A stretch of 63,980 nt of DNA, counting the filler. It is 15 parts of 15 records of this genome, joined end to end, with 100 filler letters (N's around TTAATTAATTAA, not from the genome) between each part and the next. Parts side by side here need not be neighbours in the genome. Positions count along the whole stretch, not along the records: positions 1 to 6,425 come from SRR7504441_8543; 14 more parts are not named here. One strand, given 5' to 3'. The notes under the pieces are model-generated. The model was not told where the DNA came from, did not search any database, and saw nothing but the letters and a program-made list of their open reading frames with translations. Positions within the stretch are counted from its first letter, which is position 1; each line of letters opens with the position of its first letter. Shown in pieces: positions 1 to 63,566 of the stretch. A program made the position numbers and the translations under genes.

Positions 1-39
1 TTTTAATCCAGCTTGAGTTTCCGAACGGAGATAGTATGT

Positions 40-3000
40 CTACTCTGAAGCTTGCTTGGTAGGCTCGGAGGCAAGGAAGGTAATTATCACTTGCTCGGCC
101 TTGTCGAGGTCGTCCAGCCAGAGCTCCGGCGGGGAGCTCTTCTCCAAAAGCGCTAGCTCGTTTGCCACGCCTGCTCGGCCCATTAACACTCAATTAACAC
201 ATGCCTCAACCTTTGCGCCGCTCGCTCTGGTTCTCCAGTTCTTCTAATGTCAACTGCCGCAGTGACATTCGCAGCAGCGCGTCGGTGGCAGCGTCGGGGG
301 TCATCTTGCCTGCAGGCTGCTTAAAGCGCATCGGATTCAATGTATTCACCCTTCCAGCGGGCGGCTTGCTCTATCTGCTGGCGCAGCTGATATCTCGACT
401 GGTTCAACACCTGGAACCAATCAGTGTTGATTCATGTTTGGCCGAGAGCTTACCTGGACGCGTCCGTTGACCACAAGCTGGGTTAACTGTATTGAGTCGT
501 CCATATCGACAAGTTTATCCGTCATTTTCTCCTTCAGCCTACAGCCAGCGCTCAACTCAAAATCACCTAACAGCACTTGGCGTATCGCTTGTTGTACAGC
601 GCCATCCTGGCCGTTACAAAGCGCTCCAGCAGCGACGTTGTGTCGTCGAACCGCCGGAGCACTCCATTTTCGTCAAACGCATGCATGTTGCTCACCTGAT
701 TAGAGACAGTCAAGTTCGGCCATCCAATCAATTGGCTGCCTGAATGTGCGTCTCCAGCCGCAGTCCGCGCACCAGTCCGCCTACATCACAATCGATTGAC
801 TGCGCCGTGTTAATTAAGAACCCGGGCGCAGCTGCAGCCCTGCCAGCTCGTCCGCAGAATGGAAGCGGACCTGTTGTTGTTTTTAACACTCGCATTGCTT
901 GACTAGCTGACCTCGAAATCCACGCTCTGTTCAGTGTGGTTCTCCACATAGTCACTCACCTGGCCATTAACTCCGCTAAATTAAATGGTACTATGTAAAT
1001 TAATACCTGCGGGTGGCTATCTAGGAACTTCTTATATTCGTCAGTCCATCGATACATCGGCAATTCTGTTATCCTCACAGTCCTGCCAATCGATTAGGTT
1101 GCTGATTCGTATCAAGTTCTGAGTGACTCTGGATTCAGCAACTCGAAAGAGCCATGCGATACATAGTTGGCCTATACAGTAGGATCAAATCGTTAAGCCG
1201 GAATCCAGGAGCCACCGAGCTCTCTGCAGGGAGGATCTTACCCTTGAAGCCGCTGGCCCAGGGAACCATTGGCAGTACCGGCTCTCTGGCGATCGCCCTG
1301 CGCACGTTATGCAGCACCTGACCATAAATCGAGAATTGTTTCAGCAGATCGACAAGGGTCACCTCCAGTGGGTGGTGCGGAGGAATGGTGGTCGACCACC
1401 CAGTGCCAATCCCCTCACAGCCATTCACAAGCACCAAAGGCAGCACCTGCCATTCGACTGAATCGCAGCACACCATTAACTCACCGGAGCGAAGGTGACT
1501 GGCTCAATTTCTTGACCGTCGTCTGTATTGTGTTCCAGAATCTCGCTGTCATCGCTAATAAATAGCGCCGGAACCAGCGGACTAGTCTTTGTGTAGATAT
1601 ATCTTGGACTGGCCGCGTCCTTCCCGCCTGGAAGTGATCAAGGAACCGGCAATAAAGTTTCGTGCGCATTGTACCGGCGAGTCGTGTCCCAAACTGTCCC
1701 AACGGCTCTAGAAGCGGCAGATTATTGTTGGAGCCCACAAACGACTGAGCCATCCCAGTGATTGTGCCCTGCAGACTCGCCTGCTGATGGCTTAATACTC
1801 GAGTGACTGGTTGATTCACAGACCTCTCCATGGTGGTAGGCAGTTTTCTCCGAGACAAAACCAGACAGTTGGGCCACCTGGGGATTACTGGTCATCAATA
1901 TTGACGTGGCAGTTAGGCACTTTCACTTCTTGGCTGAGCGGGCGCTGCAATAAACTCCAGAGCACCTGCCGTTTGGTCTGTTAGGGACCCACCCTAACAC
2001 TCTAGAGCGTGAATTGATTGGCAAGGGTTGGGATTTGAACCGCCTGTTACAAGCCAAGAAGGTGCTTTGCCTAATATTTTTAGTGACTATCTGAGCCAAG
2101 TGGACAACTGCTGGCCCTGCGGTGGAGGCGCACACACCGACGGCCTCGAATTCTATTGGTGCTAAACATGCTAAGTCTGTGGGTTTACCTTCCGTTGGGC
2201 CGGTTTGAGGCCGTCCATCAGGCTTGGGATCGACCTGTCTTGGAGCTAAATATATTGACTGACACAAGAGTCAACCCACCGCAGGTTGTGACTGGTGGAA
2301 AACATAGAGAGCTCCTTGTTAACAAAGTCACTGTAAGCCACCTGCTGGCCAGTTTAGATCTCGCGTTCCTCTTGTCAAGCCATAGACCTCGCTTGAGGTG
2401 TGGTCCACGAATAAGTCCTTGTCCACCTGCCATTTAAATGATGCTATGGGAACAAACTGAATCAACCGTTGCTAGCCAGTCCTTGCGGTCCTCTGTTCGG
2501 TGTTTATTGAAAGCTAAATCTATGAGCGAGCCACTCTGGTCGTCCCACCTGCCATCAAACCTTACATGGCTGTACACTACCGCAGCAATCATTGAGCCAT
2601 TAAAATAGGGATGGATACTTGAACTGAATCTGGTGCCGGTCCAGCTGAGAAAAATACTCCCTCGCCTCGGCTGAGCTGGAGGTACCCAGCCTGTTCACAC
2701 AGAATGATCCAACTAAACAAAAAAACAAGCCACCCTTTGTAGTATTTGGATACCCAATTGGCTTTAAAGTCGGCATGGCTCATCGACGACTTCCATTGCG
2801 CAAACTCAGCATTCGTGTAGAACGCGATCAGCTGCCCATGGAATCGAGCATTCAATGTGAAGTGAATCAACCTGTGAGTCGCGCTTGCTCTTGTTCCGAA
2901 CTTTGACGAGTGGCGTGATAAACTCAAATAGAAACCCATCCTGGAATGTTGTTAAATAATCAAACAGCCAGCGTTTCGTGAACCTGTTGGAGCAGCGCCG

Positions 3001-5324
3001 GCCAGAAATGGTGCAGCATGTTTATCACCAGCCCCTGCACCCGTTCTAGCCGCCTGCTGCTCTGACAGTGTTAACCTTGATGTGTGAGCCGTCTGGATCC
3101 TGGTCGGTCATCAAAAGCACCTTTCCATATCTGCAAACAACAGCTAAAATCGATTGAAGCACTGTTATCACACCGGAGTGAGTCACGCTCCTCTTGCGCT
3201 TTGTAAGTCAGTGAGTGTGACAGCCCTAAAATAGTCTTCAGATTGTTCATCTCAGCATTGTCTGTCAACTGCCTGTGCGAGGCCGTCCGCACGTTCAGCA
3301 GCTTACCTGCCCGGGGAGCTTAACAAATTGTAATCATTGAATTAATCGCCTTTGAGCGGAAACACACCATAGGTGTCCCTGCCGACCACCGCCAGCCCCG
3401 CCACCGCCAGCGACTTGGCCGAGTCGCCTACACCCAACCTTAGCTCTCAAATAACGGTGTGCAAACCTTCGGTTAAGATCAGCGTGCATTTGCCAGATCC
3501 GTGCCTGTCACGCAGGTAACAGTGGCCGGGGGTTGAGTTTTATACTTGGTGCCGGCCAGGTTGGCATCATCTAGTTTGTCTACAGCCAACCGTCGCCGCT
3601 TGCTCCCGACAGTTGGCGGCCTGGATTTACGAACTAATTCTCTTTGCTGCTTGCTCTGCACAGCTCGGATCGTTGCCTGTCGCGGCATGCCTGAGTTTTA
3701 ATTGATTTTGAGCATCAAGAGTACCTCGACCACAGGTGAGTCGGGTGAAGCCAGCTGGGCCAGCAAGGCCTGTGGCAGCCTGTGATACAGTTATAGCAGT
3801 TGGGATTTGGGGATTTAATAGTACTGACTTGGCTTTGGTCCCAAACTGGGCCGGTCGAGTGGTGAGCTGCTCCTTCATTTGAGCGTCAAACGAAGGCTGC
3901 GATACAGTTGAGAGCAGTTTGGATGTGGTGTTCACCTTGCTCACAGATGCCAGCACGAACATGGCCAGGTGCTGGCGTACCGCTGCGGGCGTCACCTATA
4001 CTAGCCATAAGTACACCAACCGCATCTGACGGCACCGTGCTCCCTCCGATGCTCTTGGCGTGATGCCTATTGATGTAATCGGCTAAATGCCCAGCCACTT
4101 GGTCGGTGATGGCAGTTACGTGAGTGCCGCCCTTGATCGTGCTGATGCCGTTGACGAAACTCACCTGTAAATCAATCTCCAGCCGCCAATTGACAAATCA
4201 ATCAGAGCTAACCTGGCTCGCGCCGTTGGTTGACACTGAAACCCCCACCCGCCAGTCCTTATTCGTCTCTGACACCACCAGCGGTTCATAACTGCAAAAG
4301 GCCGCTGGGAGTCAGTTTAAAGGCATCTTCAAATATAGAATTACCCGAACAGCTCCATAAATCTGGGCAGGGTCCGCTGGTCCAGCAGCTCGCCATTGAA
4401 CCGAACCTCAGCTCGATCGCCACACCACACCGCCGTATCAAGGGCCCGCCGGTGACACAGCGCCTGCACGCCGGATAAAATCTGCTATCGGCAATCGATT
4501 ACCCGGATCGTGCCGTCGATCCCGTCCCCACCGAACCGGTCCAAGTCTGGCTTGAATTCGACTTTCGTAAAGCTCTCCACACCATCGACTGGCGAGATCT
4601 CCGGCGGCTCGCACCTGTCCGTTAGCGAGTTTTGGCCAGCTGTGGATTGACGCACAGCGACATGTTGTTCCGCCAACGCTGGGTGTACAATTTGGCTCGG
4701 CCTGGCGCAGGTCAGGTCGGCAGGCCGAGGCTCTTGCCTGAGTCACACGTGGTCACAGTAAATTCATGTGAGAAAATATTCGCCAGCTTGGCCCCATAAC
4801 CCATCCGACCGCCGGTGAACCGGTCCTGCCCTAAATCATTTACCATTCGATCGAGTGTCAACCTGCGAGTCGTCGAAGTTGCTCCCCGTGAGCAGGTGAC
4901 CAAACACCAGTTCCGGGATCCAAATCTTCTCGCTCCTGTGCTTTCGGATCGGAAGGCCTTTGCCGTCGTTTCGGACGGCCATCCGCTCGCCGTCGCACTC
5001 GATCTCGATCGAGCGGACCCCGGAGCCCCGAGTGAGGCTGTCGATGGCGTTGACCAGAATCTCGTCAAACAGCTTGAGCAGCGCCGGTGAGTAGCTCACC
5101 TACGGGCGCCCCTGATCATTCACGGACAAACCGGGACGCGCCTCGGCCTCGCGGACTGCACTAGGGGACTCCGGGACCCACAGCCGTTGGGTGACTAACT
5201 CTGTCGGTCCGACGTACAGGTCGGGCCGCAGCAATACGTGCTCCACTGGCGTCTTGCGCGAATAAATTTCCGGCGCGCTGGCCAGCCGCCGGCGCTGGAA
5301 GCGCCAGTGCCGCAACTGGTGCAT
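40..5324 (-). CDS. TOP2: DNA topoisomerase II (eukaryotic type IIA), ~39 introns, probably organelle-targeted
   Basis: Manual splicing gives ordered hallmark motifs: EHVLLRPDLYVG, KLFDEILVNA, GHLLTGSNFDD, GGRMGYGAKLANIFS, SFVNGIST, LTEGDSAK, FPLKGKLLNVR, MTDQDPDGSHIKG, YYKGLGTS, SIPSLMDGLKPAQRK, YHHGE, GQFGTRLAGGKDAASPRYI (catalytic Tyr), NGCEGIGTGWST, ITELP, LWLDDL. ATG 5324, stop at 40-42. Confidence 0.95.
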
Positions 5325-5573
5325 GTGCGCCGTGCCGCAGAGCTACTCACCGGCGCCAGGAGCAGCAGAGTCGCAGCCTTCGTTGACCATTGTCAGCCCC
5401 GCTTCAGATGAACCCGAGCCGGTCTGTACTTGTACGCATAGAGTCTACTTGTACTCTACGGTATTTTCAAGTACCGTACCAGGTAGACTACGAACTCGTA
5501 CTCGTAGGCTTTTACAAGTTATACTGTAGCTGTCCTACCAGGCAACCCGGTACCGTCGACAGAGCTCGGTGAA

Positions 5574-6130
5574 ATGGCACCAAACGAGGGAGTGAAGATA
5601 AGCATTCAATACTGCGGCGGTGAGGGCCGCCGGCCGGTCGTTACTAATTCCAACAGGCTGAGGCTACGGGCCCAAGGCGACTGCGGCGGCCGACACCATC
5701 ACACGTGACTTCCCTGCTGGAGTGCAGATAGAGCAGATCCGGGATGCTGGGGTGGCCGTTGGACGTAACCAACTGACCGTTGGGGTGGCAGACCACCGGG
5801 AACTTCGAGATCTGTGTCAACGGCAAGTTGGTTCACTCAAAGAAGACTGGCGGTGCGCCGGGGGGGGGGGGGCACTGGGCGCCCCGATAGGCACCGACCA
5901 TAATAGGGTCGGGTCTTAGCCCCTCTTGGTCGGGTACCGCTCGGCAATAAACCCTACACACCCGCGCCTCGCCGGCAGGGCCCGATCGGGCGGGCGCAGG
6001 CGACGGTTTCCTGGACTCCGAGGAGAAGGCCATGAAGCTGTTCGAGGCGATCAAAGCGGCTGGAGGCACCCCGGCGGCCGATGGACCCTCCGAGCCGACC
6101 AAGCCGGCTGACGGGTGCACACTGCTTTAG
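5574..6130 (+). CDS. SELENOW: SelW/Rdx-family selenoprotein (CGGU motif, in-frame TGA at 5659-5661) with C-terminal CaaX (CTLL)
   Basis: Introns 5620-5656, 5752-5791 and 5853-5999 (all GT-AG) give MAPNEGVKISIQYCGG(U)GYGPK...[41 protein letters not shown]...DGCTLL*. YCxxUGY, GxFEI.[10 protein letters not shown] and GDGF.D are SelW-family motifs. Missed by the ORF track. Confidence 0.9.
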
Positions 6131-6179
6131 ATGCGTCTGATTTTACGCGGTTGGCGGATCCATGGACAACTGAGTCCCT

Positions 6180-6242
6180 GTGGCGAATGACGACGGCGTT
6201 TTAAAGAGCCACATTAGGCTCGGGACACTGTTTGAGAGCCAC
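6180..6242 (+). promoter_or_regulatory. SECIS element (type II) in the 3' UTR of the SelW-like gene
   Basis: Helix I GTGGC(6180-6184)/GCCAC(6238-6242); ATGA core 6187-6190 opposite TGAG 6233-6236; ~11-bp helix II GACGGCGTTTT/GGGACACTGTT (G-U pairs, one mismatch); unpaired AAA 6203-6205; apical mini-stem GAGCC/GGCTC. Lies ~50 nt after the stop codon. Confidence 0.88.
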
Positions 6243-6425
6243 GTATACTCAGGTAGTACTTAAACGACCAATTCGTTTTTATTAGGATTAACCTCTTGAG
6301 CCAGTTTTCGCGGGTCCAGAAACTTCCATCGGTCCTCGCTAGGACATTTTTTACGTACCGCTCCGGCCAATTCAAAATAGCGCATCCGCTATGACTTTTA
6401 AAGTTCTGACACTTTTCTGGCAAAC

Positions 6426-6525
6426 NNNNNNNNNNNNNNNNNNNNNNNNNNNNNNNNNNNNNNNNNNNNTTAATTAATTAANNNNNNNNNNNNNNNNNNN
6501 NNNNNNNNNNNNNNNNNNNNNNNNN
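6426..6525. other. Artificial contig spacer (44 N + TTAATTAATTAA + 44 N), first of 14
   Basis: Identical 100-nt spacers also start at 10497, 14762, 19407, 23352, 26778, 33019, 38216, 42872, 46061, 49193, 52946, 56215 and 60616. The linker has stop codons in all six frames. Confidence 0.99.
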
Positions 6526-7127
6526 GGACTGAGCAGAGTGGCAGGCGGCCACGCTGGTGCTGCTGATATGGGCGGCCCGGCGCTGGCGTTTCAGACTGAT
6601 GCTCTCGCTGCTTCGATTTGTGCGAGAAGCTTGAGCGTTTCCATTTCTTCTGCCCGAGCCAGTCCCTGGGCCCGCCGAGCTTGATCACAAATGACCGTAT
6701 CAAGAGTGATCTCTAGAAGCCCCGCTGCGACAGGTGCTGCTTGGGTGTGAGGGGCGGCCGGTGAGACCTGGTCGGTTGGCGCGATGTGCTCGGTTCGAGA
6801 CGCGAGCCCGGAAGAGGGCAACTCACTCGAGCCGCAGGTTTATTGTTTTTGGCTGTGCGCCGAAATGGAAAATAAATCCCTCCAACAACGGCTGAGCTAT
6901 TACTGGCCTCACCCAGCGCGGTTGTGTGCGGCGGAGTAGCGGCTGAGTACAGTACAATCGGTTGTACGGTACGTAACTACAACGTAACTTAAACGTAACT
7001 ACGTATGACCGCCGCCTCTCCGGCAATGCGCACCACCTTCAAAGATTTTTCACCTCTGGGCCAGCCGACATAAAGCCGACAAGTTTAGAAAAGTGGGTAC
7101 CAGTTTATCAAAGGACTACTTGACATG

Positions 7128-7267
7128 ACACGAATCGATGACAGACTGTCGATTCGGCCGCAATCAAACCCAAAAACTTGACAGTCTGTCTTGACATGTC
7201 ATCGACCAACTCTGTTCAACCGTCTGTCAAGTTTTTGGATTTGATTGCGGCTGTCTTCGATTCGTGT
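7128..7267. repeat. Inverted duplication spanning the stop codon of the SNARE-like gene
   Basis: 7157-7184 is the reverse complement of 7224-7251 (28 bp, 1 mismatch). The match extends to 7128/7267 with a ~12-nt insertion in the left arm. Confidence 0.85.
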
Positions 7268-10208
7268 GCCCACCTCATCCACAATCTCGTTGCTCTCGTC
7301 AAACATGTCGCCCAGCACCTGGCACAGAGGTCAGAGAACCAGCAATAATAGAACCAACCTCGGCCTTCTCTTTGATCTCTGTTATCCGGTTCTCTGACCG
7401 GTTATAAAACGCGTCCATCTGCTGATCGCCAGTGCTAATGTCCATGTCTTTGCTGTAAGTACGCTTCTTCCCCGGGGCTCTGGACCGCATGTCATTATGA
7501 TTAGAGTAACTAGCAGGCTTGCCGGTGGCTCTCTCGCGCCTGTTGACTGCTGTTGTTCCTGAGCAGCACGTCGGGCTGGAAGTAGCTCGCGTCCTCGGCG
7601 AACAGCACCTCCACCTGCCCCTGCTCGTCCCGCCCACCCCAGCCGGCACATGGTGGTTCACGTTCTCAAACGCGCGGTACACCAGCTCCCGCACCTGCCA
7701 TCGTCAGCCAGCCGCTCTGCTGCAAGCCACCAGCTGCACTGTGCTGCCGTCCTTCTGGTCCACTGGCCACAATTCCCACAGCTGCCCGAATCAGTCCAGC
7801 GCGAATCATAAACACGAACCTCCGGTTCGGGCGATTTTCGGAGCCGGTTCTTGAAGTGCAGCACCACTTGTGCCTTTTTAAGCACTTGAATGCACATGAG
7901 CGCCGTGAAGCTTTTGGCCTGATCCTTCTCAGCTTGGATGATTCAACCAGGCACCTCGGTCACAGTATCGCCCGTGAGGTGCAGCAGCCCGATCCGAGTC
8001 AGCCTGAGCATGCGCTTGTGCCTGATCATAGGTTAGGGCCAGGGGCAGGCCCTCGTGCCTAAACATATCCGAGTCCAGCTTCACACGCAGCTTGTATTCG
8101 TTGTCGCCTGTCCGCGCGGGATAGCGAGACCATCAGGCAACAACGGGCACCCTCGCTCAGCTTTGGGGCCTTGGTCTGCTGGCTTCCGCCTGAGGAAAAC
8201 ATGCCGCCCTCCATGTTCTTGATGAGCTTGTCTGCTTCACTCAGCCGGGCCTGGACCATGTTCAGCTTGCGCGCGGCCGCCTTCAAGTCTGTGTTTTGAT
8301 CATAAAGCTCCTGTGCACGGCTGGTAAATCAGCGGTGCGTGATTGCGCCTTTATGGTATCAGTGGCCAGCTCGCTGGTGAAGAGCGTGGTTCGGTCGACC
8401 CGTTCCTGCGCCTGGAGCAGCCGGACTTGCGTGTCGATCTGCTCTTCCAGTTGCGCCTGCACCCCCGTCATTGCCTGCCACACCCTGCAGCGCCTTTTCG
8501 CCCGGGTCCTGCTCCTGATCGCGCATCGCCACCAGTCCCTCTGCCCCTCAGCTGAGCACCCGCCCACCACCGGGCCGCTCACTTATCTTCCGCTCGGCCA
8601 GACCCTCAACTGACTTTGGCTCGTCTGCGCTTCGTCGCCGCTGCTCAAACGCCCCCTGCGTGCACAAAGTCGCGAGCACAGCGTGCAACAGGCTGACCGT
8701 GGCCGGCGAGTTGCTCCAGGGCTCGGGCGAGGCGCTCCCGCTGCTCAGAGAACTGCGGGCCGGAGGCGAGCCAGTCTTGCTCGCGCGCTGCGGCCAAGTC
8801 TGGCACGCCTGGAGCCCGCGTTCGCTCAGCTGGAAAGTGGCGTCGCTCATGTTGCCTGCCAGCCAGCTGGAGGGCTGGGGCTGGGCGGGCACCGATCACA
8901 GCGGTGAATCTGGCATCGTGCAGCTTTTGAGTTCGGAGCAGCCCGTGCTTGACGAACCCGTCCACCGTGAGGAAGCCCTTGGCCAGGCTGCCCTCGGCCG
9001 TGTAGTTTGAGTGCACAGAAGCCAGCTGGTCCCAGTCCCCGAGCAGCAGCTCCAGGTCAGCCAGCTTGGTCGGCCCAAGCTGCGCAGATCGAATCAGCTC
9101 CTGAAGGCCTTGCTGCAAGCACCTGAAGCTCGTCTGCCAGCCCAAGCATGAGCCCCATCATCCTGTCGCCAGCATAGCGGCAGAGCGCATCCGGCGGAAT
9201 CCGAGTGCTCGGCTCGTCGCACTCCGGGCCTGTGGCTGCCGCTTACCAAATGATGGAGTAGGCTCACCTGGTGCCCGGAGTGACTTGAGCTTGGTCAGCT
9301 CCTCAAAACGGTGCCGAAGCGCCAACCGACGTGAAACCTGCCAAGCGGTCAGAACGCCCGTACTGAACAACCGGCCACCCGGGCCTGATCTGCCGGCCCG
9401 TCCCTGGGCTGCACCTGCGGCACAATGAGCCAGCCTGACTCACTGGTCCAGACCTGCACACGGAAGATCCTCTTGCGTCTGAGCGGGGTCAGCAAAACTC
9501 CCTTGTCCTCAAGCCCCCTGCAACCAATCAGCTGAACCAGACGGAATATCGGGCACCACGAATCGCTGTCCCAATCGGCAGCGTATCGCCAGCCCTTCTT
9601 GTCTGGCTGGGTGGCTGAGTCTGGGCTCCAGTTCCAGCCGAGGTCAGGCTCCCACTGGCTGATCCACTCCCACCCGTCGTGCAGCCCATGCCTCACCATG
9701 TCCGCGCTGCTCATCGGCCGGCCCTCCGCGTCCATCGTCTTGGGCGGATCGGCTTGCCTCACCTGCCCGTCCCTGCGCTCGTTGATGTACGCCTCCGTCT
9801 TCTCGGCGGCCTCCACCCGGGACAGAACCAGCTCCAAGGTTTGGCTGCGCACCGGGCAGGCAGCGCTGCTGCTGACCAGCCCGGAGAGGCTTTGGCCAGA
9901 GAGCTCGTCGAGCATGCTTTCGAGCAGGAATAGGTTAGAGTCTGTGAGCGCCCCGATCTGACGGAGCAGCCCGGCCGCCCGGTCCGGGTCCAGGCTCAAT
10001 TCGCCGTCGGAAGACCAGACCACCGCAGGCAGGAAGAAGAGCCGGACGATCTGGGCCTGGCGCGGGCTGAGTTTGTGATTGTTGAGCTGTTCCGTCAGGC
10101 AACTCGGCATCGGCATGCTCCGCACCTATCACACCCGGCGGTCAGGCCGGCGGCCGCGCAGAAAGGCGCCTGGATATCGTCGTTGCACCGCGAGCATAGG
10201 CCTCCCAT
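7199..10208 (-). CDS. Multi-exon protein: N-terminal MGGLCSRC acylation motif, DysF-like domain, and two SNARE motifs (Qb and Qc, SNAP-25-like)
   Basis: Continuous frame after removing short GT/GC-AG introns. DysF-like: GWEWISQWEPD..DKKGWRYAADW..LRRKRIFR. Qb-like: TDTIKELYDQNTDLKAAARKLNMVQARLSEADKLIKNMEGG. Qc-like: DQQMDAFYNRSENRITEIKEKAEVLGDMFDESNEIVDEVGTRIEDSRNQIQKLDRRLNRVGR*. Confidence 0.75.
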
Positions 10209-10988: not shown

Positions 10989-13900
10989 TTATCTTGCACC
11001 ACGTCTCGAATCCTCGATTTCGCATGCCTTCCGAACAAGTTCTTCATAAGGCAAACCATACTTCTTGGCTAAGTGATAAGCATGAGAGCGAGCAACCTTT
11101 TCTTTTTCTTCCTCGAGCAAATTCAAACCTTGTATGCTAGAGCTTGGGCGCTCGTATGAGTGCGAGTTTCTTGTAGGTGTAGCAGATTGACGGGCAAAGA
11201 ACTCTTGGCGCGATATTGTATCATCCCTGTTAGTGTCCGTAATTTCAAACTCGTGAAGTGCAGCCACGCCCTCAGAAGGGCTGTGCGCATGGACAAACTC
11301 AGATCGAGAAAGCTTACCATCCTTATTAGTATCTATCGCATCAAAGTGCGCATCATGAACGGCGGAAGCTCTGGCGGCCTGCTTGCTCCAGGTGCCAAGC
11401 GCAGTAGCAGCTTTCAGCACCACCCATCGTGACATCATACGACCAAGAAGTTTAAGGCCCGCCTTCTTCTTCTGTAGTCCTGGAGAATCCTGCTTCGGTG
11501 TGTTGGCCCGCCAGTGGCCAAGACCTCGAATGATTCCGGCTGCGACCCATCGAGAAACAATGTTGCCAATGATTGCAGCTGCCCCTTTGGCTCTCGCCTT
11601 CCGCAACTTAGCAAGCATGGCATCCTTTCCAGATGCCCCCACATGATCTGCTTTCGGTTCTGATGCTTTGCTCGACGTCTCTGGTTCTTCCCTAAGGGCT
11701 GGTCGGGAGGCGTTTGCGACATCGAGTGGAGTCTTTGTGTCCTGCTGGTTCTCTTCCAGCCGCTTAATTCGAGCCTCCAATTCTTTATTCTGCTGTGCCA
11801 AGCGAGAAACATCGCTCACAGAGTGCCCACCCGACCCGACCCCAAGCTTCCCACCCCCTTTGCCCTTGCCGCTGCGCAGCCCAGATTGGCCAGGCTGGCT
11901 ACCACCTTTAGACCGTCCGTTTTGTGTCGCAACTGGTTTTGGATCTTCGACCAGTCGGCGTTCATCTCCCTTACTGCTAGGCAGCACTGTCTGTGGTTGT
12001 ACAGTAGATGAAGTACCTGTGTCTATCCCCACGATGCCAGTCGTCTCGAGTGCAACGTTTGCACCAGGAGACGAGCTGGAATCCTCACTTCTACCATAGC
12101 TTACTGGGGGCAAGGCCGCCTGTTTGCGAAATGTTGCTAAGCGATCAGCTTCTTCGGGCGTTTGTGGGACCACTTGGATAGTATTGTGAGCATATGCGGT
12201 AAACTCTTGCCGAGAAATAAACCCATCCTTATCCGCGTCAACACGATCGAATTCTTGATTCGCCAGCTGTTCAACAGTTGGCATCTCGCCCTGTGATCTC
12301 GCAATTGAGCCTGGCACCCTCGGTGCTAACGTTGTTTCTGAAGTTCCTGTGCCAGTTTCCCTTCGCCTATCTTGCGCTTCTAGCTTGGCATTCAACTCTC
12401 TGTGATCTAGAACTCCGTCTTGATTTAAATCATATGTTTCAAATTCTTGGTTTGTCCCCCCAGAGCCCAAAAACTCTTCCCGATCCACTATTCCATCTCG
12501 ATTCTTGTCCATCGCAAGCGCCTCCTGTAATTCGTTGTTTTTCTGCTCAAGTAAATCCAATCGAAGCTTTAGTTCTCTGTTTTGTTCCTCCAAATGAGTG
12601 TGCTTCTCATTGGTGTTGTCCAACTTTTCAACATGTGATGGACCAGCTTCGTCAACAGCATTGCTGGCCCTAAGCGATTCTGTGGCTCCAGCTGCTCGAA
12701 GCGCAGATTTCATCACACCTTTGCCTGTCCTTCCGGCCGTCGGGAGTGCTGGCATAGGCCTTCGACATGCTGCAGCATATTCATCCTGAGAAATCACGCC
12801 GTCCTTGTTTGAATCAACTCTATCAAACTCTGCCTCGCCAGCTTTTTCTCCGAATGCATCTTTGAACTCTGAACGTGAAATTAGCTTGTCCTGATTTACA
12901 TCAACCTGGTCGAACTCTTCTTGTGTGGTCAGGCCTTGTTGACGCAAAGCGTTCTCTCCACGCTGATCTGGGCTGTAAGCAGCAACGAATTCTTCACGGG
13001 AGATCAAGCCATCCTTATTTGTATCCACTCGAGAAAATTCCACGTCCCCGACCTCTGGGTTATAGCCATAGGCCGCAGCAAACTCAGCTTGGGTTATCTG
13101 TCCATCGGTATTGACATCGATTTTGTTGAATTCCTCCTCGGCAGCAGACTCTGCACTGGGATTATTGAGCACTTCTGGAATTTTGGGCTCCGGATCCATA
13201 TCTCTGAGAGCCTGTAGCAGCGCGGAATCTTCGGTATACTTTGGAGACGATTCATTTGATTGTGGGTTGGGTGTCACTAAATGAGCAGAATCTTGTTCGT
13301 CTGCATAGCTTGGCCGAGTCCGATCCGTGCCTGCAAGCTCAGGCCATCTGATTCCACTCTTATCAGTATCAAGCTCCACACCAATGCTTGCCTTCATGGC
13401 GTTCGTCTCAGAATCTAAAGTGCTCGAAACTGACTTGATTCGTTCCTTTGGCTTAAATGTGTCGAAAAAGCTTCCTCCCCCAGGGGATGCTTCGAGAGAT
13501 CTGCGGACGCTCTCACCTTCAATGGGGTCATCGCATGCGGCCTTCACTGCCGCTACGAACTCTCCACGGGAAATTAAACCGTCTTTGTTTGTGTCAATTT
13601 GGTCGAACTCCTCGTCCAGTTTTCTCATTGGGAGATGGGGGACAGTCTCTGGGCCAGGCGCCAGCTGCTGCTGTCCTGCAATAATTTCACGATCCATCGA
13701 ATCAGGCTCGTCGACATTGCTTCTACCAAGGTCAGCCTTGAGCTTGCGGTTTTCTGCCTCCAGCCGCGCCATCTCCTTTTCCAAGAGCGACACGGTCGTA
13801 CCTGAACCTTCCAGGGGAGATCTCGCCTCCAAAGCAGCCACTCGCTGTGCTAACGAGTTTGCGTTGCTGTTAGTTGGTCCAGAGTCTGGCGATGCTCCGT

Positions 13901-14750
13901 ATTCATGTGGCGCACGCGAGTCAGCGTCCGGAGATTGAGACATCGATGGGGATGTTTTGGACCGTCGGATAGCTGCAACGCGGTCTGCTTCCGCCGCAGC
14001 CCACGGGAAGAGTTCTCTTATTTCAGTCGTTTGAGCAGCAAATGCCACCGGCACCTCCACCTTTGCTGCAGCTGCTGTCTTGACCGCAACCTCCGCTATT
14101 GCATCTTTGATGTCCATTACTGGGACTTTCGTCATATGGCCAGCTGGTCTAGCTTCACTAGATGCAGTCGATGGGCTTGGCGCAGAAACCTCCTTAGAAG
14201 GAGCTCTCTGCACTTGGCCTGCTTGGCCTGAGTCCAATTTGATGGGAGGCACTCGCTGTGCTCCTGGCATACTTGGCGGACTGGTGACTGGCGGCGGCAT
14301 TGGTGGTTTTTGCACAGGTGGTGGCTTTTGTACTGGTGGTGGATTTGGCACTGATGGCGGCACGCTAGCCTTCTCCACCCCTCCACGTCGCCACTCGTCA
14401 CGATCAATTACCCCATCCTTGTTGATGTCCAGGTCATCAAACGATTTGCCTTGTGCGTCTGAAGCAAAATGGCCTCTATCCTGCCCTATCGACCCAGAAG
14501 GGATGTTGGGCTTCGGTCGCTCTCGTTCTGGGCTCTGAGCTGGACTCGCACTGGGCGAGCGTTTCAGAACAAAGTCAAAATGCTGGTCAGTTGGGATGGT
14601 AACATATTCCTCCAAAGGCCCTTGTACTGCAGCCGGGGGTGGGGTGCCTGACAATGCCTCATCTAACTCCTGCTGCTGCCGCGCCGCCTCCTGCCCTGCC
14701 TGAACGGCATTGTTTTTAATCATTTCAAATTCCTGCCAGCCCCCACTCAC
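10989..14750 (-). CDS. Large multi-EF-hand protein (11 EF-hand loops, coiled coils, Pro-rich linkers), probably 5'-partial
   Basis: Uninterrupted 1253-codon ORF with 11 DxNxDGxIxxxE-type loops (e.g. DINKDGVIDRDE, DTNKDGLISRGE, DSNKDGVISQDE). Starts at the contig edge. Confidence 0.88.
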   Translation of the reverse strand: MSGGWQEFEMIKNNAVQAGQEAARQQQELDEALSGTPPPAAVQGPLEEYVTIPTDQHFDFVLKRSPSASPAQSPERERPKPNIPSGSIGQDRGHFASDAQGKSFDDLDINKDGVIDRDEWRRGGVEKASVPPSVPNPPPVQKPPPVQKPPMPPPVTSPPSMPGAQRVPPIKLDSGQAGQVQRAPSKEVSAPSPSTASSEARPAGHMTKVPVMDIKDAIAEVAVKTAAAAKVEVPVAFAAQTTEIRELFPWAAAEADRVAAIRRSKTSPSMSQSPDADSRAPHEYGASPDSGPTNSNANSLAQRVAALEARSPLEGSGTTVSLLEKEMARLEAENRKLKADLGRSNVDEPDSMDREIIAGQQQLAPGPETVPHLPMRKLDEEFDQIDTNKDGLISRGEFVAAVKAACDDPIEGESVRRSLEASPGGGSFFDTFKPKERIKSVSSTLDSETNAMKASIGVELDTDKSGIRWPELAGTDRTRPSYADEQDSAHLVTPNPQSNESSPKYTEDSALLQALRDMDPEPKIPEVLNNPSAESAAEEEFNKIDVNTDGQITQAEFAAAYGYNPEVGDVEFSRVDTNKDGLISREEFVAAYSPDQRGENALRQQGLTTQEEFDQVDVNQDKLISRSEFKDAFGEKAGEAEFDRVDSNKDGVISQDEYAAACRRPMPALPTAGRTGKGVMKSALRAAGATESLRASNAVDEAGPSHVEKLDNTNEKHTHLEEQNRELKLRLDLLEQKNNELQEALAMDKNRDGIVDREEFLGSGGTNQEFETYDLNQDGVLDHRELNAKLEAQDRRRETGTGTSETTLAPRVPGSIARSQGEMPTVEQLANQEFDRVDADKDGFISRQEFTAYAHNTIQVVPQTPEEADRLATFRKQAALPPVSYGRSEDSSSSPGANVALETTGIVGIDTGTSSTVQPQTVLPSSKGDERRLVEDPKPVATQNGRSKGGSQPGQSGLRSGKGKGGGKLGVGSGGHSVSDVSRLAQQNKELEARIKRLEENQQDTKTPLDVANASRPALREEPETSSKASEPKADHVGASGKDAMLAKLRKARAKGAAAIIGNIVSRWVAAGIIRGLGHWRANTPKQDSPGLQKKKAGLKLLGRMMSRWVVLKAATALGTWSKQAARASAVHDAHFDAIDTNKDGKLSRSEFVHAHSPSEGVAALHEFEITDTNRDDTISRQEFFARQSATPTRNSHSYERPSSSIQGLNLLEEEKEKVARSHAYHLAKKYGLPYEELVRKACEIEDSRRGAR

Positions 14751-14917
14751 ACTAAGGGCGCNNNNNNNNNNNNNNNNNNNNNNNNNNNNNNNNNNNNNNN
14801 NNNNNTTAATTAATTAANNNNNNNNNNNNNNNNNNNNNNNNNNNNNNNNNNNNNNNNNNNNCCCGATAGCCTCCAACCGGCCGCCGGTCTGCCCCCTCAC
14901 CGCCGCCCACTTGCAGC

Positions 14918-27865: not shown

Positions 27866-27971
27866 TGGCGAAGCGTCGAGGCCAAGCGTCGAGGCGGCTT
27901 TATTTTATTTTTTTCGGCCTGCACTTGCAACCTACCGGCCGGAGAGGGGCTGAACCCGGCCGGCGGCGGGG

Positions 27972-29200
27972 ATGTCGGGTGGCTGGATGACCGTGCCTGG
28001 TACGGCTGCGGTCGCCGGCAGCCCAGACTGTTGCAGGCGGGATGGGCGGGCTGGCGGCCAAGTACAGCGGGAAGCGGGCCCACGAGGTGGACGAGGCCGG
28101 CGGCTGGGAGGACTTCCAGGTCCTCAGCCGGCAGCAGGGCGCCAGTCAGCCGGCGGCGCAGGACGGGGAGGACCGTCGGCTACCGCGGAACTTTCTCTCT
28201 GCGCACGGGCTGGACTCGTCCGGCTTTACGGTGGCGCCGGCCGGTACGCTGTGCGAGCTGGGGCAGGCGGCCAGCATGGACACGGCGCTGCCCCCGGAGA
28301 ACAAGGGCTACCAGCTGCTCCAGCGGATGGGCTGGAAGGCCGGCGCCGGGCTGGGCAAGGCGGCGCAGGGTGCGGCGCAGGGTGTGACGGGCAGGAGCCC
28401 GGGGGGGGCAGGCCGGCTGGTACCGGTCCGTCTAGACGAGGAGAACGCCCGGTTGGGGCTGGGCAAGAATTCGGAGTTGAACTACTACCATAAGGAGGCC
28501 ACTAAAGAGCGGGTCAAACTAGACTCGGAGATTAGTCGGGAAGAGCACTACGAGAAGCGACACGAGCAGGCAGAGAAGTGTGAGAAGATCCAGACAGAGG
28601 TGGCCTGCGGTGGGCGCCGGGTGCCAGGCTGCTGGGCAGATAAAGCAGGTGACGCGCAAGTTCTACTGCGATGTGTGCGATAAACAGTGCGAGGGCCGGG
28701 GTGCGGCGAGGAGCCGGTTTCAGGTATCAGACGTCTATGCAGTACCAGGAGCATTTAGATAGTTACGACCACCATCATACCAAGGCACCCAGCCGACTGG
28801 CTGGGCTTATTCGGGACGGCAGCGGTTCAAGGAGATGAAGGCAATGATGAAAGGCGCTGAGACGGAGTCAAAGGAGGCGCGGGAGCAGCAGGCAGCAGGC
28901 AGTTAGTTGGCTGGTTGAGCTGCATGGCAGAGGGCGGCGAAGGAGATGAAAAAGGCGATGAAGCAGGCGGCCAAGGTGGTCCACGGTGTGCTTAAATGGG
29001 CGACGGGTGTGACAGATGGCGGAGGCTGCCAAGCAGGGTGGTCAGTCACAGACGCTGAACCGCACTGCGGGTGCGGCAGTTTCCATGTCGTTTGGGAAGA
29101 AGGTGAGCTTGCCGCTTTCGTTGCTTTGTCTGAAAATTTGACTTTGCAGAAGAAGACCGGACTAGCGCCTAAGAAGCCTGTCACCATGACTTTTGACTGA
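27972..29200 (+). CDS. G-patch domain + C2H2 zinc-finger protein
   Basis: G-patch ENKGYQLLQRMGWKAGAGLGK..PV..RLGLG; zinc finger FYCDVCDKQY..YQEHLDSYDHHHTKRFKEMK after splicing. Confidence 0.85.
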
Positions 29201-33118: not shown

Positions 33119-35939
33119 GGTGATCTCGAACAAATGGATGGAGCTCCGGACTCAGAGCAGGCGGTCGATGGCCCAGAGGACAAGGTTGCTTCTGCACTGC
33201 ACATAGCTGGGGCCGTCGAGAGTGCTCTCGGTCCAAGAAATGGGAGCCCCATAAGGAAGCGAAGCGCCCGGGCTGAAGAAGAGATCAAAGCAGCAAGGAA
33301 TGCTAGACTCGCAAAAGAGGAGCATGCAGCCCAGCAAACTTTAGAATCAGAGCAGCAGTTGCAAGCCGCAGAACAGCAGCAGGATTTATTGCTGGTTGAA
33401 GACGTCGAAGAACAGATTCGCGCTGCAAGAGAGGCCAGGATTGAAAAGGAGCGAGTGGATCAAGCAAATGAACAGAGCAGCCCTCGCACGATGGACGCAT
33501 GCGGAAGCACCCAGCTCACCAGAGCAGCTGCTGAAGAGCAGCTGACAGCAGCGTTGGCGACCCAAGAGCCTGAGGAAATAGCGTCAGCTAGAGAGCATTT
33601 GCGTACTGTTATCATGCATGAGACCGGAGCTGAATCATCTGACGGCGCTAATGCTGAGTTTGACATTACAAAAGGGCAGATAAGAAGTGCAAATCGGATC
33701 TCACAGCTATTACAGGACAATGCGAACGATTGTGAAAACGAGTCAAAGCAGCATTTGCTCAATAAGCAACCAGCAGTACTGAACCCTCCGGTGTCAATGT
33801 CAGGCAATGGCGTTGGGAGGCCCATTAAACAACCAGTACAAACAAACGGTAGCAGAAACCTGGAGCCGAGACTGACAAATGATATGAGCCCCCAAGAGCG
33901 GAAGGAGATGGAGCGCGACCTCATGGATTCTATGCAAGGCGTTAAACGTCAGAAGGAGCGATGTCGAGTGCCCAAACTTGAGAGGCATGCCAAGGCTGTT
34001 GTTCTAGGCCTAGCTGCTCGCGAGCCATGGGACGCCCTCCTTCTTGCTCATCTTCTCAGGCAGGTCTCGACTACATTGAATCACGTGCTAACGGTTCCAC
34101 ATGTGCTGCACCAGCTTGTCTTGACAGCTTCGGTATTCGTCACTAGCTTCAATTTGAGCGGGCAGCCAGTCTTAGAGGACACAGGCAGTTGGTTGCCTCA
34201 GGGGGCAGTCGATTATGACCTATGTGTGATTGCTCTGCAGCAAGTAGACCCAGACCATGAGCCACAGATCACAACAACGCTTGAGACGAATCTGGCACCC
34301 ACATATGTGAAAGTTGCCTCGCAGTCTGCTGCATCGCTCCTGATGGTTGTGTTTGCTCGCAAGCGTCACCTTGACTTTGTCACCAACGTGGTGTTTGCGG
34401 CTTCTGCCCGGGCCCAGGGCAACTCTGTTGCCGCTGCAAATAGCATCTCGCTCGAGTTCTATGGCAAAACCATGTGCCTGGTGGACGTGGACCTGCCATG
34501 CCACTCTGAATGGCCAGCAAAGGTGAGGAACGATTGTATCCGCTGCCTCTCCTACGACCTCGCAACTCAGCTTCGTCCGTCTGCAGCACCACAGATGGCG
34601 TGGTGTGAATTGTCAACTTGCTTTGATCTCTGCCTCTGGACTGGTTGCTTCGGATTTCCACTTATCGGTAAGCGAGAAGAAATACAGAGTTTGATTGCAG
34701 GTGGTGACTTGGCGGCGCTTCAAGAAAAGGATTCATTCCTGCAACAACGGCGTGAAGACGCTCTTTTGCACACATTTAATTCCAGTGACAAGGCAGTATA
34801 TGCGCTCCGTCCTATGTACCCTCTACCCCCGCGGAATGCAGAATCAGCAGAGCTGCACGACTTGCCCGAGCAGGATTCTGAATGCTGGGAGGTACCATGG
34901 CCGTCTCGCATGTTGTGGCGTCCAGCCTCCGGAGTCCAGTTTGGTCAAAGATGGCTGAAGACCGACCATCAATTGTGCACTTGTAGCAGTCACTGCCCCT
35001 TATCAGCTTTGTTTGAGCTTTCGCTGGACTGCCGCCCTCTACGGGCATCGCCAACTGCGCCTTTCGATAACCAGCAACTTGGGCTCGTCCTGCACGATCT
35101 CAGGGCCCACTTTGCACCCTCGGCAGATCATCATTTGGACTCTTTGGAGAGCAGCGGGCCGGATCGAGTATTTGTGATGTTTTCGGCGCATTTCCTACAG
35201 AATTCTGGGGTTTGTACCGGATTGGCTAATTCGAATCTTGGGTTGTATGAGTGGCCCCGGGTCGATACACCCATGCTGCGGTGCGTCAAGCACTTCATTC
35301 CATCCAAAGCACCGCTGCTCCACATAGACGCGTTTCAGGTTATTAATTAAGCCTCTGACGTGCTGTCCGGCTGACAGCTTGTTACAGGTTGGGAACGATG
35401 CTAAAGGCGCTCTGCAACCTGTTGGCTCAACAGCCATACGACTGCACGATGCAGATGGCGCGTGGATCGGATCAGAAGTTTCTGGCACTTTTGAATTCAA
35501 GGCAAACTTATCTCTGTGCGGATTCCCTGGTGGTACTATCACTGGGCGGCTCGGTGTCCACTGGCTGGATCCGCCAGCAGCTCCCGGAGCAATGCAGTCC
35601 TTTCTGGGGACAGTCTCGACTATGCTGGGAAATGAGTCGGTGCCAGAGCCACAGCGGCCTCGAAATATACAGGTCGCCCGGCTCAAAGCTTCAGCAAGGC
35701 GCCTTGACCCTGCTCGGCGCTGTCATCGCAGTGCCCCACAGTGCAAACCTCACACCGCGCCAATGAAAGCGCCAGCTTCTCGCAGCTGCATCAAGTGCCA
35801 TGATTTGCTGACTGCTTTCCAGACACCACGTCCTGGGTACAGTTGTGACAAGTGCGGATCTGGACTAGAGAAAGGCGCGCAAGCTTATGGGTGTAGGAGA
35901 TGTGACTACGATCAATGCGCCAAGTGCTACTTTACGTAG
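33119..35939 (+). CDS. Inositol polyphosphate 5-phosphatase-like protein with degenerate active site and C-terminal Cys-rich zinc finger, probably 5'-partial
   Basis: Ordered remnants of 5-phosphatase motifs (VTSFNLSG, DLCVIALQQ, WTGCFGFP, PWPSRMLWR, SSHCPLSALF); terminal CIKC..CDKC..CRRCDYDQCAKC. Confidence 0.65.
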
Positions 35940-61677: not shown

Positions 61678-63566
61678 ATGGCGGAGCCCCCGAGCAAGAA
61701 GCCCAAGGGCGAGTCACGCCTCGGGCTGGCCTCTCTGGACAAGCTCAAGCCCGGCTGCACTGGGCTGCCCTACGACCGCGCTGGGCTGTCGGCCGGGATC
61801 GTGCACTTTGGGCTTGGCGCCTTCCACCGGGCCCACCAGGCGCTCTACACGCACGAGGTGCTCGCCGACAGCCCCGAGTGGGCCATCGTGGGCGTCTCGC
61901 TCCGACGACCGGACATGCGCGACCTCATGGCCCCTCAGGACTTCCTGTTCACCCTGGTCGAGCGGGCAGCCTCCGGAGTGCCCAACCCGGCACGCGGCGC
62001 CCGAGCGGCCACGGGCAGGTTACCGCCCGAGTGATCGGCTCAGTGCTGGATGTACTGGTGGCGCCCGAGGACCCGGGTGGCACCCGCGGCTCGGCTGGCG
62101 CTGATGTGCGTGGCAGCCAAAGTGCTGGCAGTGCTGGCGGCCCCCTCCACCAAATTGGTGAGCCTGACTATCACCGAGAAAGGCTACTGCTGCAACCTGG
62201 CGAGCAAGTCGCTTATCATGGACCACCCAGACATTGAGCACGACCTGGTACCCGGCCCATCGGCCCGCCCCCAGCCCGGCGCAGGCCAACCAGACCGCCC
62301 CGCGCTCAGCGATCGGGCTGCTGGTCGCTGGTCTTGCGCTCCGGCGCAAAGCCGGGCTCAAGCCGTTCAGCGTGCTGCCATGCGACAACATGCCGGGGAA
62401 CGGCCCTCTGGTGCGCCAGCTGGTGATCAGGTGCCGCGCGATAGTGGAGGGCTTGAGCTTTGGGTCAGCTTTGCATCCGCACTCGACCCTGAGCTTGCGA
62501 GCTGGATCACAACCAATGGCAAGTTTGCCAGCTCGATGGTGGACCGGATCGTGCCCGCAGTGACCGCGGCCGACATAGCCCAGGCCGAGGAGCTGAGTGG
62601 ACTGGTGGGCTGGCGCCTGGCGCGTACGCCGACTAGTGAACAGGCGGACCCGGGAGCAGTGGCCACTGAACAGTTTAAGCAGTGGGTAATCGAAGACAAC
62701 TTCGTCGACGGCGCTCGGCCGCCGTGGGAGCAGGTCGGCGCGCTGCTGGTCAAAGACGTGGAGCCGTTTGAGAACATGAAGCTTCGGATGCTCAATGGCA
62801 CTCACTCGACATTCGCCTACTGCGGCTTCCTGGCGGGTTTTGAATTCATATACCAGGTGCGGGGCGGGCCAGGGGGGAGGCGAGCCCGGCCAGGTGATGG
62901 AGGAGCCCGCAATGGTCAAGCTCATGCACAAACTGCTCTCTGAGGAGGTCGGTGCCACTGGGAGGCGATCCAGACAGGAGCTGACAGGTGCTGCCTACCC
63001 TTGAAGTACCGGCCGGGGTGGACCTTCAGGCCTACCAGGAGGCGCTCGCGGTGCGGCCCTGGGGTGTTGGCTGGGCTAGCCGGCGGCAGGAACGGTTCCG
63101 GAATCCGCACATCAAACACAAGACCTACCAAATCGCAATGGACGGCTCCCAGAAACTGCCGCAGCGCATCCTGTCAGTAGTGCAGGCAGCCAAAGGACCC
63201 ACCGACACGCTCGCGCTCGCCACAGCCGGTAAGATGCTGCCGACGTGGCCTTAGCCAGCGGCAGGCTGGATGCGGTATGTAAGGGCCAAGGATGAGGCTG
63301 GCGGCTCCTACCAGGCAATTTGGCAGTCCGCTGTGGCATGCGGGCCGATTGGGCTCGGTCAGGTTCAAGACCCGATGAGCGAGCTGGTGGTGGCTAAAGC
63401 CAACCAGAGCGAAGATCCAGCCGCAGTGGCCGAGGCGTTGTTTGGGATCGAGGAGATCTTTGGTGGAACAGCGGCCAATGTAGGGTTTAGGAACAAGGTG
63501 ACTGAGCACTTGAAGAGCATTTTTGAGAAAGGCATGCTGGCAACTATCAAAGCACACGTGCAATAA
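61678..63566 (+). CDS. Mannitol dehydrogenase-family oxidoreductase (mannitol 2-DH / D-mannonate oxidoreductase-like), ~10 introns
   Basis: GIVHFGLGAFHRAHQA, VSLTITEKGY, CDNMPGNG, SMVDRIVP, EQFKQWVIED, MKLRMLNGTHS, RFRNPHIKH, IAMDGSQKLPQR. Confidence 0.95.

Follow-up and report, generated by a model that had tools for sequence, protein, structure and literature searches.

Dense introns of about 40 nt with weak splice-site signals in genes of an uncultured marine protist

The genome of Symbiodinium minutum is very intron-rich and has weak 5′ splice sites, GC donors and a conserved G after the 3′ AG (PMC4083563). Intron length has been described as a source of information for intron recognition, its contribution being largest among fungi, plants and protists; even so, some species, protists included, are said to be left with an ‘information deficit’ (PMC3033335); the intron length distribution has been treated as recognition information in a later study as well (PMC6157073). 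In human cells, short introns whose pyrimidine tract is truncated or absent are reported to be spliced with SPF45/RBM17 in place of U2AF as the 3′ site factor, the spliceosome being otherwise the standard one (10.1101/784868, 10.1101/2022.12.30.522300). Here we analyse a window of 63,980 bases, which is the whole stretch of DNA under study and consists of 15 contigs of 3.0–6.4 kb each, separated by spacers of 44 N, TTAATTAATTAA and 44 N; it is not a single locus. On its first contig (positions 1–6425) sits a DNA topoisomerase II gene (TOP2, 40..5334, minus strand) with 40 exons and 39 introns. An earlier note on this DNA had described very dense introns of about 40 nt with weak signals, and had proposed that a narrow range of lengths might be the main recognition signal and might point to a modified spliceosome. 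The observation of dense introns of about 40 nt with weak signals is confirmed. We read them, with a probability of roughly 0.78, as ordinary U2-type introns of an uncultured marine protist that are recognised by intron definition at minimal length. On this reading they are a case of classical intron definition at the lower limit of length, and they are not evidence for a changed spliceosome; the length idea is right about the information and unproven about the machinery.

The TOP2 gene and the evidence for its introns

Pieces of TOP2 were found in the minus-strand stop-to-stop frames of positions 40–5340, and a search with one exon of 87 residues gave many TOP2 proteins and as its best match P0001, a metatranscriptome protein of 1136 residues, which served as the reference for spliced alignment with a custom protein-to-genome dynamic programme (codon matches, gaps and GT/GC-AG introns of 18–400 nt in three phases). 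The resulting gene model, which draws on the alignment to P0001, on exon statistics and on RNA contigs, begins at a putative ATG at 5332–5334, beyond the edge at 5324 given in the earlier note, and ends with the stop codon at 40–42. Its spliced product is aligned to P0001 almost without gaps and is identical in 745 of 1116 columns (67%), and every one of the introns is required in this alignment for the frame or for the removal of a stop. The introns, previously put at about 39 and mostly 36–48 nt, number exactly 39, of which 35 are 36–48 nt long, 36 are 36–49 nt and 37 are 36–53 nt, with a median of 43 nt and two outliers of 70 and 223 nt. The exons measure 30–237 nt (median 77), and the coding sequence of 3,427 nt carries 11.4 introns per kb. 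Four of the donors are GC and the rest are GT. When GA, AT and GG donors and AC acceptors were permitted as well, three of the 39 TOP2 introns and none of the ten introns in a mannitol dehydrogenase gene on another contig were changed, and these alternatives are wrong because the three displaced TOP2 introns are RNA-confirmed.

A word search showed that marine metagenome and metatranscriptome runs share 6–14% of the words of positions 1–10000. Contigs of three RNA runs (X3, X4 and X6) and one DNA run (X1) were compared with 1–6425, and the RNA check covers this first contig. Among the joints listed from the RNA contigs, which give lower bounds, at least 12 of the 39 predicted TOP2 introns are matched to the base; the earlier note had named different junctions in the transcripts as what would speak against it, and the junctions found are the predicted ones. 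Eleven of the 12 listed TOP2 joints read CT..AC on the plus strand, that is GT..AG on the gene strand, and the remaining one (696–739) has six equivalent cut positions, among which GC..AG is the only known type. With the neighbouring gene included, the 15 RNA-supported junctions listed comprise 14 of GT..AG and one of GC..AG. Moreover, boundaries of RNA pieces coincide with predicted TOP2 exon edges at 1485, 3174–3305 and 4736–4824. The contigs of the DNA run X1 show no joint on 1–6425 and run in line with the window through many of the introns (e.g. 3325–4017). At least fifteen introns are present in DNA and precisely removed from RNA in three metatranscriptome runs. At the 3′ end of the gene, RNA contigs of X3 and X6 match the window down to position 34 and then show about 30 differing letters, and the window bases 1–33 (TOP2 3′ UTR) may be a misassembled end or an allele. 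When metagenomes were scanned with P0001, the matches were limited to a cDNA-like contig from this relative itself and to TOP2 genes of other organisms with about 40% identity; the genomic locus of a second close species was not found.

All 39 introns lie on the minus strand and are supported by homology, which here means the spliced alignment to P0001; they are given below in the order of transcription. Intron 1 (5100..5141, 42 nt) is GC-AG, its sole GT-AG alternative being 24 nt long, and intron 2 is found at 4826..4862 (37 nt). Intron 3 (4696..4731, 36 nt) is also GC-AG, and a 45-nt GT-AG version of it was ruled out, as the RNA contig X4 record 14 passes unspliced through the alternative GT donor at 4746. 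Introns 4 to 8 are located at 4615..4655 (41 nt), 4464..4502 (39 nt), 4292..4344 (53 nt), 4165..4212 (48 nt) and 3996..4035 (40 nt), respectively, and intron 9 (3897..3935, 39 nt) is divisible by three and has no in-frame stop. Introns 10 to 13 follow at 3780..3828 (49 nt), 3677..3724 (48 nt), 3505..3545 (41 nt) and 3428..3466 (39 nt). Between intron 14 (3307..3349, 43 nt, GC-AG) and intron 15 (3131..3173, 43 nt) lies the RNA piece 3174–3305, which ends at the exon edge on the side of the former and begins at 3174 next to the latter. Introns 16 to 19 occupy 3035..3075 (41 nt), 2941..2983 (43 nt), 2832..2871 (40 nt) and 2691..2733 (43 nt), and intron 20 (2549..2618, 70 nt), with the donor GTATCCAT, is also seen as an RNA joint in X4. 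Intron 21 (2418..2457, 40 nt) has the acceptor AAG, and introns 22 and 23 are at 2342..2387 (46 nt) and 2235..2279 (45 nt). The flanking exons of intron 24 (1966..2188), the length outlier of 223 nt, are contiguous in P0001. A string resembling a tRNA T-arm (GGTTCAAATCC-like) is present in this intron, which has no match in Rfam or as a tRNA in ARAGORN and no second copy within the window. Intron 25 (1878..1920, 43 nt) is followed by intron 26 (1781..1823, 43 nt; RNA joint in X4), intron 27 (1628..1674, 47 nt; joints in X3 and X4), intron 28 (1447..1484, 38 nt), next to which an RNA piece begins at 1485, and intron 29 (1318..1362, 45 nt), which is divisible by three and without in-frame stop. 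RNA joints in X3 support introns 30 (1172..1215, 44 nt), 31 (1083..1127, 45 nt), 32 (960..1006, 47 nt), 34 (781..821, 41 nt) and 35 (696..739, 44 nt, GC-AG), while intron 33 (871..911, 41 nt), which contains an in-frame stop and whose removal restores the alignment, is retained in one X3 record. Introns 36 (539..576, 38 nt), 37 (411..453, 43 nt) and 38 (310..349, 40 nt) have joints in both X3 and X4, and intron 39 (171..210, 40 nt) has joints in X3, X4 and X6.

Intron class, splice-site signals and the role of length

For the statistics, a high-confidence set of 57 introns was assembled from TOP2 (39), the mannitol dehydrogenase gene (M2DH, 10), a kinesin gene (5) and a gene resembling selenoprotein W (SelW-like, 3, RNA-confirmed). 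A secondary set comprises 66 short introns that a crude ab initio spliced-ORF finder predicted in other genes. This finder uses TOP2-trained codon usage and an acceptor matrix, without a donor or branch term; run on TOP2 it gives 36 introns against 39, and it misses stop-free introns with a length divisible by three.

All 57 high-confidence introns have the GT-AG or GC-AG termini of the U2 type, GC donors being found in five of them (about 9%). It is very improbable, in our estimate, that the introns are instead assembly or annotation artefacts, U12-type introns, hairpin introns or introner elements. In favour of an artefact is the make-up of the window from short metagenomic contigs joined in a chain, and the donor GTATCCAT at 2618 of the 70-nt TOP2 intron (2549–2618) looks U12-like, being one base off the U12-type donor consensus. 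However, the introns are absent from the RNA contigs of three runs and present in the DNA run, the termini are GT/GC-AG throughout, and this is the only near donor of the U12 type, in an intron that lacks a corresponding branch box close to its 3′ end. The U12-type is described by the donor RTATCCTT and the branch box TCCTTAAC near the 3′ end (partly PMC3033335). The hairpin-dependent introns of Amoebophrya and euglenids are non-canonical introns with non-GT-AG ends and inverted repeats that pair the intron ends (PMC7789003), whereas the ends here are canonical and there is neither excess folding (mean z-score −0.18, with 2 of 54 introns below −2) nor excess end pairing (4.0 end-to-end pairs vs 3.6 in shuffled introns). 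As for introner elements, the introns share no 11-mers, their 8- to 10-mers are only modestly above shuffled counts, and the long introns have no other copy within the window. In a test for dinoflagellate-type donors, G follows the 3′ AG in 64–87% of introns across the sets, GC donors amount to the 5 of 57 mentioned above, and a GA donor is not required. In addition, a search for snRNAs with Rfam gave no match in the whole window at gathering thresholds; with the limit relaxed to E up to 1 on 1–6425, a single miRNA match of chance level came up, and ARAGORN found no tRNA.

The 5′ splice site consensus is GTRAGT-like and complementary to U1 snRNA. No such U1-complementary donor is found here beyond the GT, for positions +3 to +5 of the TOP2 donors carry 0.00–0.01 bits and +6 carries 0.22 bits (pyrimidine), and the only intronic donor preference in the GC-rich genes is G at +3 (65–69% of introns). 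The six donor hexamers quoted in the earlier note are all present in TOP2, and its statement that the donors share essentially nothing except GT stands for the intronic positions +3 to +5; it does not stand for the dinucleotide, which is GT in 90% and GC in 10% (4 of 39), nor for the exon, where A occupies −2 in 62% and G occupies −1 in 77% of the TOP2 introns. At the acceptor, C is found at −3 in 79% of TOP2 introns and in 92–100% of those in the GC-rich genes, and in TOP2 the exon continues with G at +1 (87%) and a pyrimidine at +2 (87%). With the exon flanks included, the TOP2 donor totals 5.8 bits and the acceptor 7.8 bits, 13.6 in sum; the corresponding donor totals in the GC-rich genes are 5.85 bits (ab initio set) and 8.15 bits (M2DH and SelW-like, n = 13), and the acceptor totals are 7.81 bits (ab initio set, in which acceptor statistics are circular because of the matrix used) and 9.34 bits (M2DH and SelW-like). 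The sequence information is therefore larger than had been thought, the exon AG before the donor and the CAG|GY acceptor having been overlooked. GC content is 47% in the TOP2 introns and 67–71% in those of the other genes. Positions −4 to −6 before the acceptor are G-rich.

That only some introns carry a branch site, as had been said, is true of the strict motif YTRAY. Of 49 short introns, 17 contain it with the A placed 5–30 nt upstream of the 3′ end, vs 9.0 in shuffles (maximum 16); in M2DH it occurs in 1 of 10 introns. Degenerate motifs, which the earlier note had missed, are enriched over shuffles: expectation-maximisation gave YYRAYY (3.6 bits) in the high-confidence set, with a log-likelihood of 32.3 vs 10.1 in shuffled sequences, and GCTGAC (4.3 bits) in the 66 ab initio introns, with 61.2 vs 12.0.

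The 57 high-confidence introns have a median length of 41 nt and an interquartile range of 39–44 nt, and 53 of them fall within 35–50 nt; the lower edge is sharp at 36 nt, and the right tail consists of introns of 53, 70, 147 and 223 nt. Lengths that crowd into a narrow peak directly above a sharp limit, with few longer introns, are the pattern of a minimal-length intron regime. How much this spacing contributes was seen in a decoy test. The TOP2 pre-mRNA of 5,295 nt holds 734 GT/GC sites and 370 AG sites, which form 13,635 GT/GC..AG pairs at 25–300 nt, of which 1,100 are at 34–55 nt. Selecting the 39 introns requires about 15.2 bits when the choice is among the pairs 25–300 nt apart, and 18.5 bits when it is among all pairs. 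Using leave-one-out TOP2 site matrices and a greedy pick of the 39 best non-overlapping pairs, 29 of the 39 introns were recovered exactly with a length prior (31 donors and 31 acceptors being correct) vs 6 without it, and the decoys scoring at least as high as the median true intron numbered 6 and 215, respectively. With matrices trained on other genes, the branch matrix having included TOP2, the figures were 23 and 3 of 39. Length adds 3.5 bits on average (median 4.2) relative to a uniform distribution over 25–300 nt. Spacing demonstrably closes most of the information gap, not all of it. The earlier note is supported in so far as length supplies essential information for recognition.

These results can also be taken to mean that the spliceosome itself measures length or is modified, with the recognition by U1, SF1 and U2AF relaxed or lost and the AG chosen about 36–50 nt from a G|GY donor; the SPF45/RBM17-like factors of short introns might then replace U2AF. 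Consistent with this are the 0 bits at +3 to +5 of the TOP2 donor and the lack of a pyrimidine tract, the lack of an AG-exclusion zone and of a focused branch-like motif, the large effect of the length prior (29 vs 6 of 39), and the use of SPF45/RBM17 by human short introns with truncated tracts (10.1101/784868). On the other side, introns of 70, 147 and 223 nt are spliced in RNA or required by homology, so that the machinery is not restricted to one length; the exon flanks and acceptor contribute to 13.6 bits and the branch-like motif is enriched; the GC-rich genes prefer G at +3 (65–69%); and ordinary intron definition predicts an identical information pattern. We consider a modified spliceosome improbable and not required by these data, and keep a small probability for it because there is no AG-free zone and no focused branch site.

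Under ordinary intron definition, which we prefer, the introns would stand at the minimal workable length of the lineage, with a floor of 36 nt and a median of 41–43 nt, very densely in some genes. A donor and an acceptor, each of them weak, would be paired across the short intron by their proximity, and we assume that this pairing across the intron is the mechanism. The information would be spread over the exon AG, the GT or GC, the degenerate YYRAYY/GCTGAC branch-like motif, the CAG|G-pyrimidine acceptor with its two exon bases, and the tight spacing. The splicing machinery would be the standard one, and the length peak would represent a floor set by spliceosome geometry and deletion pressure rather than the reading of a measured ‘ruler’. 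A floor fits better than a measured length because the edge at 36 nt is sharp and because the tail of 53, 70, 147 and 223 nt is correctly spliced.

Several observations weigh against this reading. There is no polypyrimidine tract, as the earlier note had said of many 3′ ends: over the 15 nt that precede the acceptor trinucleotide the pyrimidine fraction is 0.45–0.50, and for this reason there is no evident sign of U2AF-type recognition. Nor does the best branch-like site keep to one position, its median distance from the 3′ end being 16.5 nt vs 18 in shuffled interiors. An AG-free zone is missing too, unlike in textbook scanning for the 3′ site: in the 54 short high-confidence introns the last 12 nt contain 33 internal AGs where 38.8 are expected, and in the 66 ab initio introns 53 where 43.6 are expected. 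Furthermore, X3 record 7 runs unspliced through the TOP2 intron 871–911; we take this for pre-mRNA or for a retained intron. The statistics are all drawn from one window of short contigs, with 57 high-confidence and 66 model-dependent introns. Finally, the site model misses 10 of the 39 TOP2 introns even with length, so that part of the information has still to be accounted for; exonic signals or an improved branch model might supply it, or the training set may be too small.

The last point leads to the possibility that specificity comes from outside the introns, through exonic enhancers or silencers, a depletion of decoys at the codon level or a clean-up by nonsense-mediated decay, the latter having been proposed for ciliates with tiny introns. 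It is compatible with ordinary intron definition, and we hold it to be possible but rather unlikely. The 10 introns that matrices and length leave unrecovered and the one intron retained in RNA agree with it. In TOP2, 29 introns shift the frame if they are retained, and 8 of the 10 that are divisible by three carry an in-frame stop, which agrees with it too. However, a depletion of introns divisible by three is not clearly seen: TOP2 has 10 among its 39 and M2DH has 4 among its 10, a far too small sample, and 5 of these 14 have no in-frame stop.

Other genes of the window and their likely origin

Next to TOP2 on the first contig, the SelW-like gene (5574–6110, plus strand) has an RNA-confirmed spliced product of 109 codons. 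Its three GT..AG introns are found at 5620..5656 (37 nt; RNA joint in X3), 5752..5791 (40 nt; X3 and X6) and 5853..5999 (147 nt; X3, X4 and X6). Close to its N-terminus the product has an in-frame TGA as part of the motif C-G-G-TGA, which is similar to the CxxU redox motif known from proteins of the selenoprotein W/Rdx family; one exon frame had no Pfam match, and no SECIS element was found with Rfam at E up to 1.

On a separate contig, a gene of the mannitol dehydrogenase family (M2DH, 61678–63560, plus strand) encodes the Pfam Mannitol_dh N- and C-terminal domains. About ten introns had been noted in it, and spliced alignments to three references (P0156, P0157 and P0160, the last being bacterial) agree on exactly ten of 36–48 nt: 61978–62018, 62077–62116, 62248–62284, 62431–62468, 62605–62643, 62857–62893, 62948–62987, 63051–63089, 63229–63264 and 63315–63362, the last being GC-AG. 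Once Telonema and two unnamed transcripts from eukaryotes are set aside, the nearest homologues of M2DH are bacterial, with about 45% identity over the query stretch. If the gene came from bacteria, its introns were gained after the transfer.

The kinesin gene (57144–59165, minus strand) was aligned to P0288 of Telonema subtile, which predicted ten introns. Five of 37–41 nt passed a filter on flank identity (59039–59075, 58685–58724, 58229–58268, 57913–57953 and 57785–57821), and the other five were discarded for weak flanking identity, gaps or an implausible length of 20 nt. One contig-1 gene was excluded from the high-confidence set, its best homologue being 43% identical and its boundaries unfixable.

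Pfam searches on long frames of the other contigs found LCAT, GH3, O-GlcNAc-transferase-like TPR, S9 peptidase, sulfatase, Frizzled/cAMP-receptor-like, kinesin, thiolase and mannitol dehydrogenase domains, and the genes on these contigs are ordinary eukaryotic ones. Intron density per kb is 11.4 in TOP2, 6.7 in M2DH and about 1 or less in the GH3 and sulfatase genes, a more than tenfold spread among genes of similar codon usage. Two long frames have no introns, namely 10992–14759 (minus strand; 1256 residues, multi-EF-hand) and 33119–35347 (plus strand; 743 residues, endonuclease/exonuclease/phosphatase domain). Codon usage sets them apart from the intron-rich genes (GC3 0.46–0.53; log-odds near 0 in the TOP2-trained model), and they may be mis-binned contigs or a distinct gene class. 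In addition, a protein predicted ab initio at 27929–29011 (plus strand) has a G-patch-like segment and a C2H2 zinc finger of the kind seen in RNA-processing factors.

As to the origin of the contigs, the only close relative of TOP2 is P0001 (67%), and all other TOP2 sequences fetched are 39–44% identical, including a cluster with a member from Karlodinium veneficum (P0117) and, besides it, sequences of Anaeramoeba flamelloides (P0113) and Hondaea fermentalgiana (P0077). The best full-length match of M2DH is a transcript of Telonema subtile (P0156), which in the spliced alignment is clearly closer than the two other references, and the only long match of the kinesin is P0288 of the same species (69% over the matched query part, alignable over the whole length). 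TOP2, M2DH and kinesin share their codon usage (GC3 0.70–0.78; log-odds 0.38–0.41 in the TOP2-trained model). Most likely, then, the contigs derive from an uncultured telonemid, an assignment that is based on two genes and codon usage and not on phylogeny.

If so, they offer a first look at the gene architecture of that phylum. In the literature searched, neither nuclear genomes nor introns of telonemids were found to be described, and a large plankton genome study states that Telonemia are not among its genomes (PMC9903769). Telonemia branch beside the stramenopile-alveolate-rhizarian group, and a very high intron density in this position is relevant when ancestral intron numbers are reconstructed. 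It is conceivable, though in our judgement doubtful, that the spliceosome of Telonemia has shifted to a spacing-based mode, in which a minimal G|GY donor and the CAG|G acceptor are paired by distance, the intronic donor is no longer read in the manner of U1, neither a pyrimidine tract nor scanning for the first AG is used, and the 5′ and 3′ site factors are altered or replaced; were this true, that mode would permit one of the highest intron densities in any gene (the 11.4 per kb of TOP2). These genes are a natural extreme case of how a spliceosome locates introns with information-poor sites, and gene finders or read mappers that set a minimum intron of 40–50 nt or expect a pyrimidine tract would misannotate such genomes.

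Comparison with known systems

The introns described here are like those of Symbiodinium minutum in their richness, their weak 5′ signal, the occurrence of GC donors (here 5 of 57) and the G after AG (here 64–87%); they are unlike them in that GC is there about as frequent as GT and GA is used, whereas here GC is in the minority and GA unneeded. The lineages differ as well, the closest named homologues here being from Telonema. Symbiodinium introns are reportedly hundreds of bases long, against a median of 41 nt here.

With the ciliates Paramecium and Nyctotherus, whose introns are about 25 nt long, they share a narrow peak at the lower limit of length and a presumed intron definition (PMC5014332). 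Unlike the ciliate introns, they measure about 41 nt and not about 25 nt, have a GC content of 47–71% and, in TOP2, have donor positions that are free of information within the intron. Ciliate introns are AT-rich and keep a GTA...TAG-type consensus.

The surveys of Iwata and Gotoh (2011) and of fitild (2018) follow the same logic as our decoy test (PMC3033335, PMC6157073). The present lineage is not included in those surveys, and the shortest mean intron length among 61 species, 56 bp (PMC3033335), exceeds that found here. The human SPF45/RBM17 introns are likewise short, with a truncated or absent pyrimidine tract (10.1101/784868, 10.1101/2022.12.30.522300); the difference is that they form a subset in human, whereas the lack of a tract is seemingly general here. 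The introns of this window are canonical in their chemistry and extreme in their number, their shortness and the poverty of their intronic signal, and they represent a new lineage with extreme parameters within the known kind of minimal introns recognised by intron definition.

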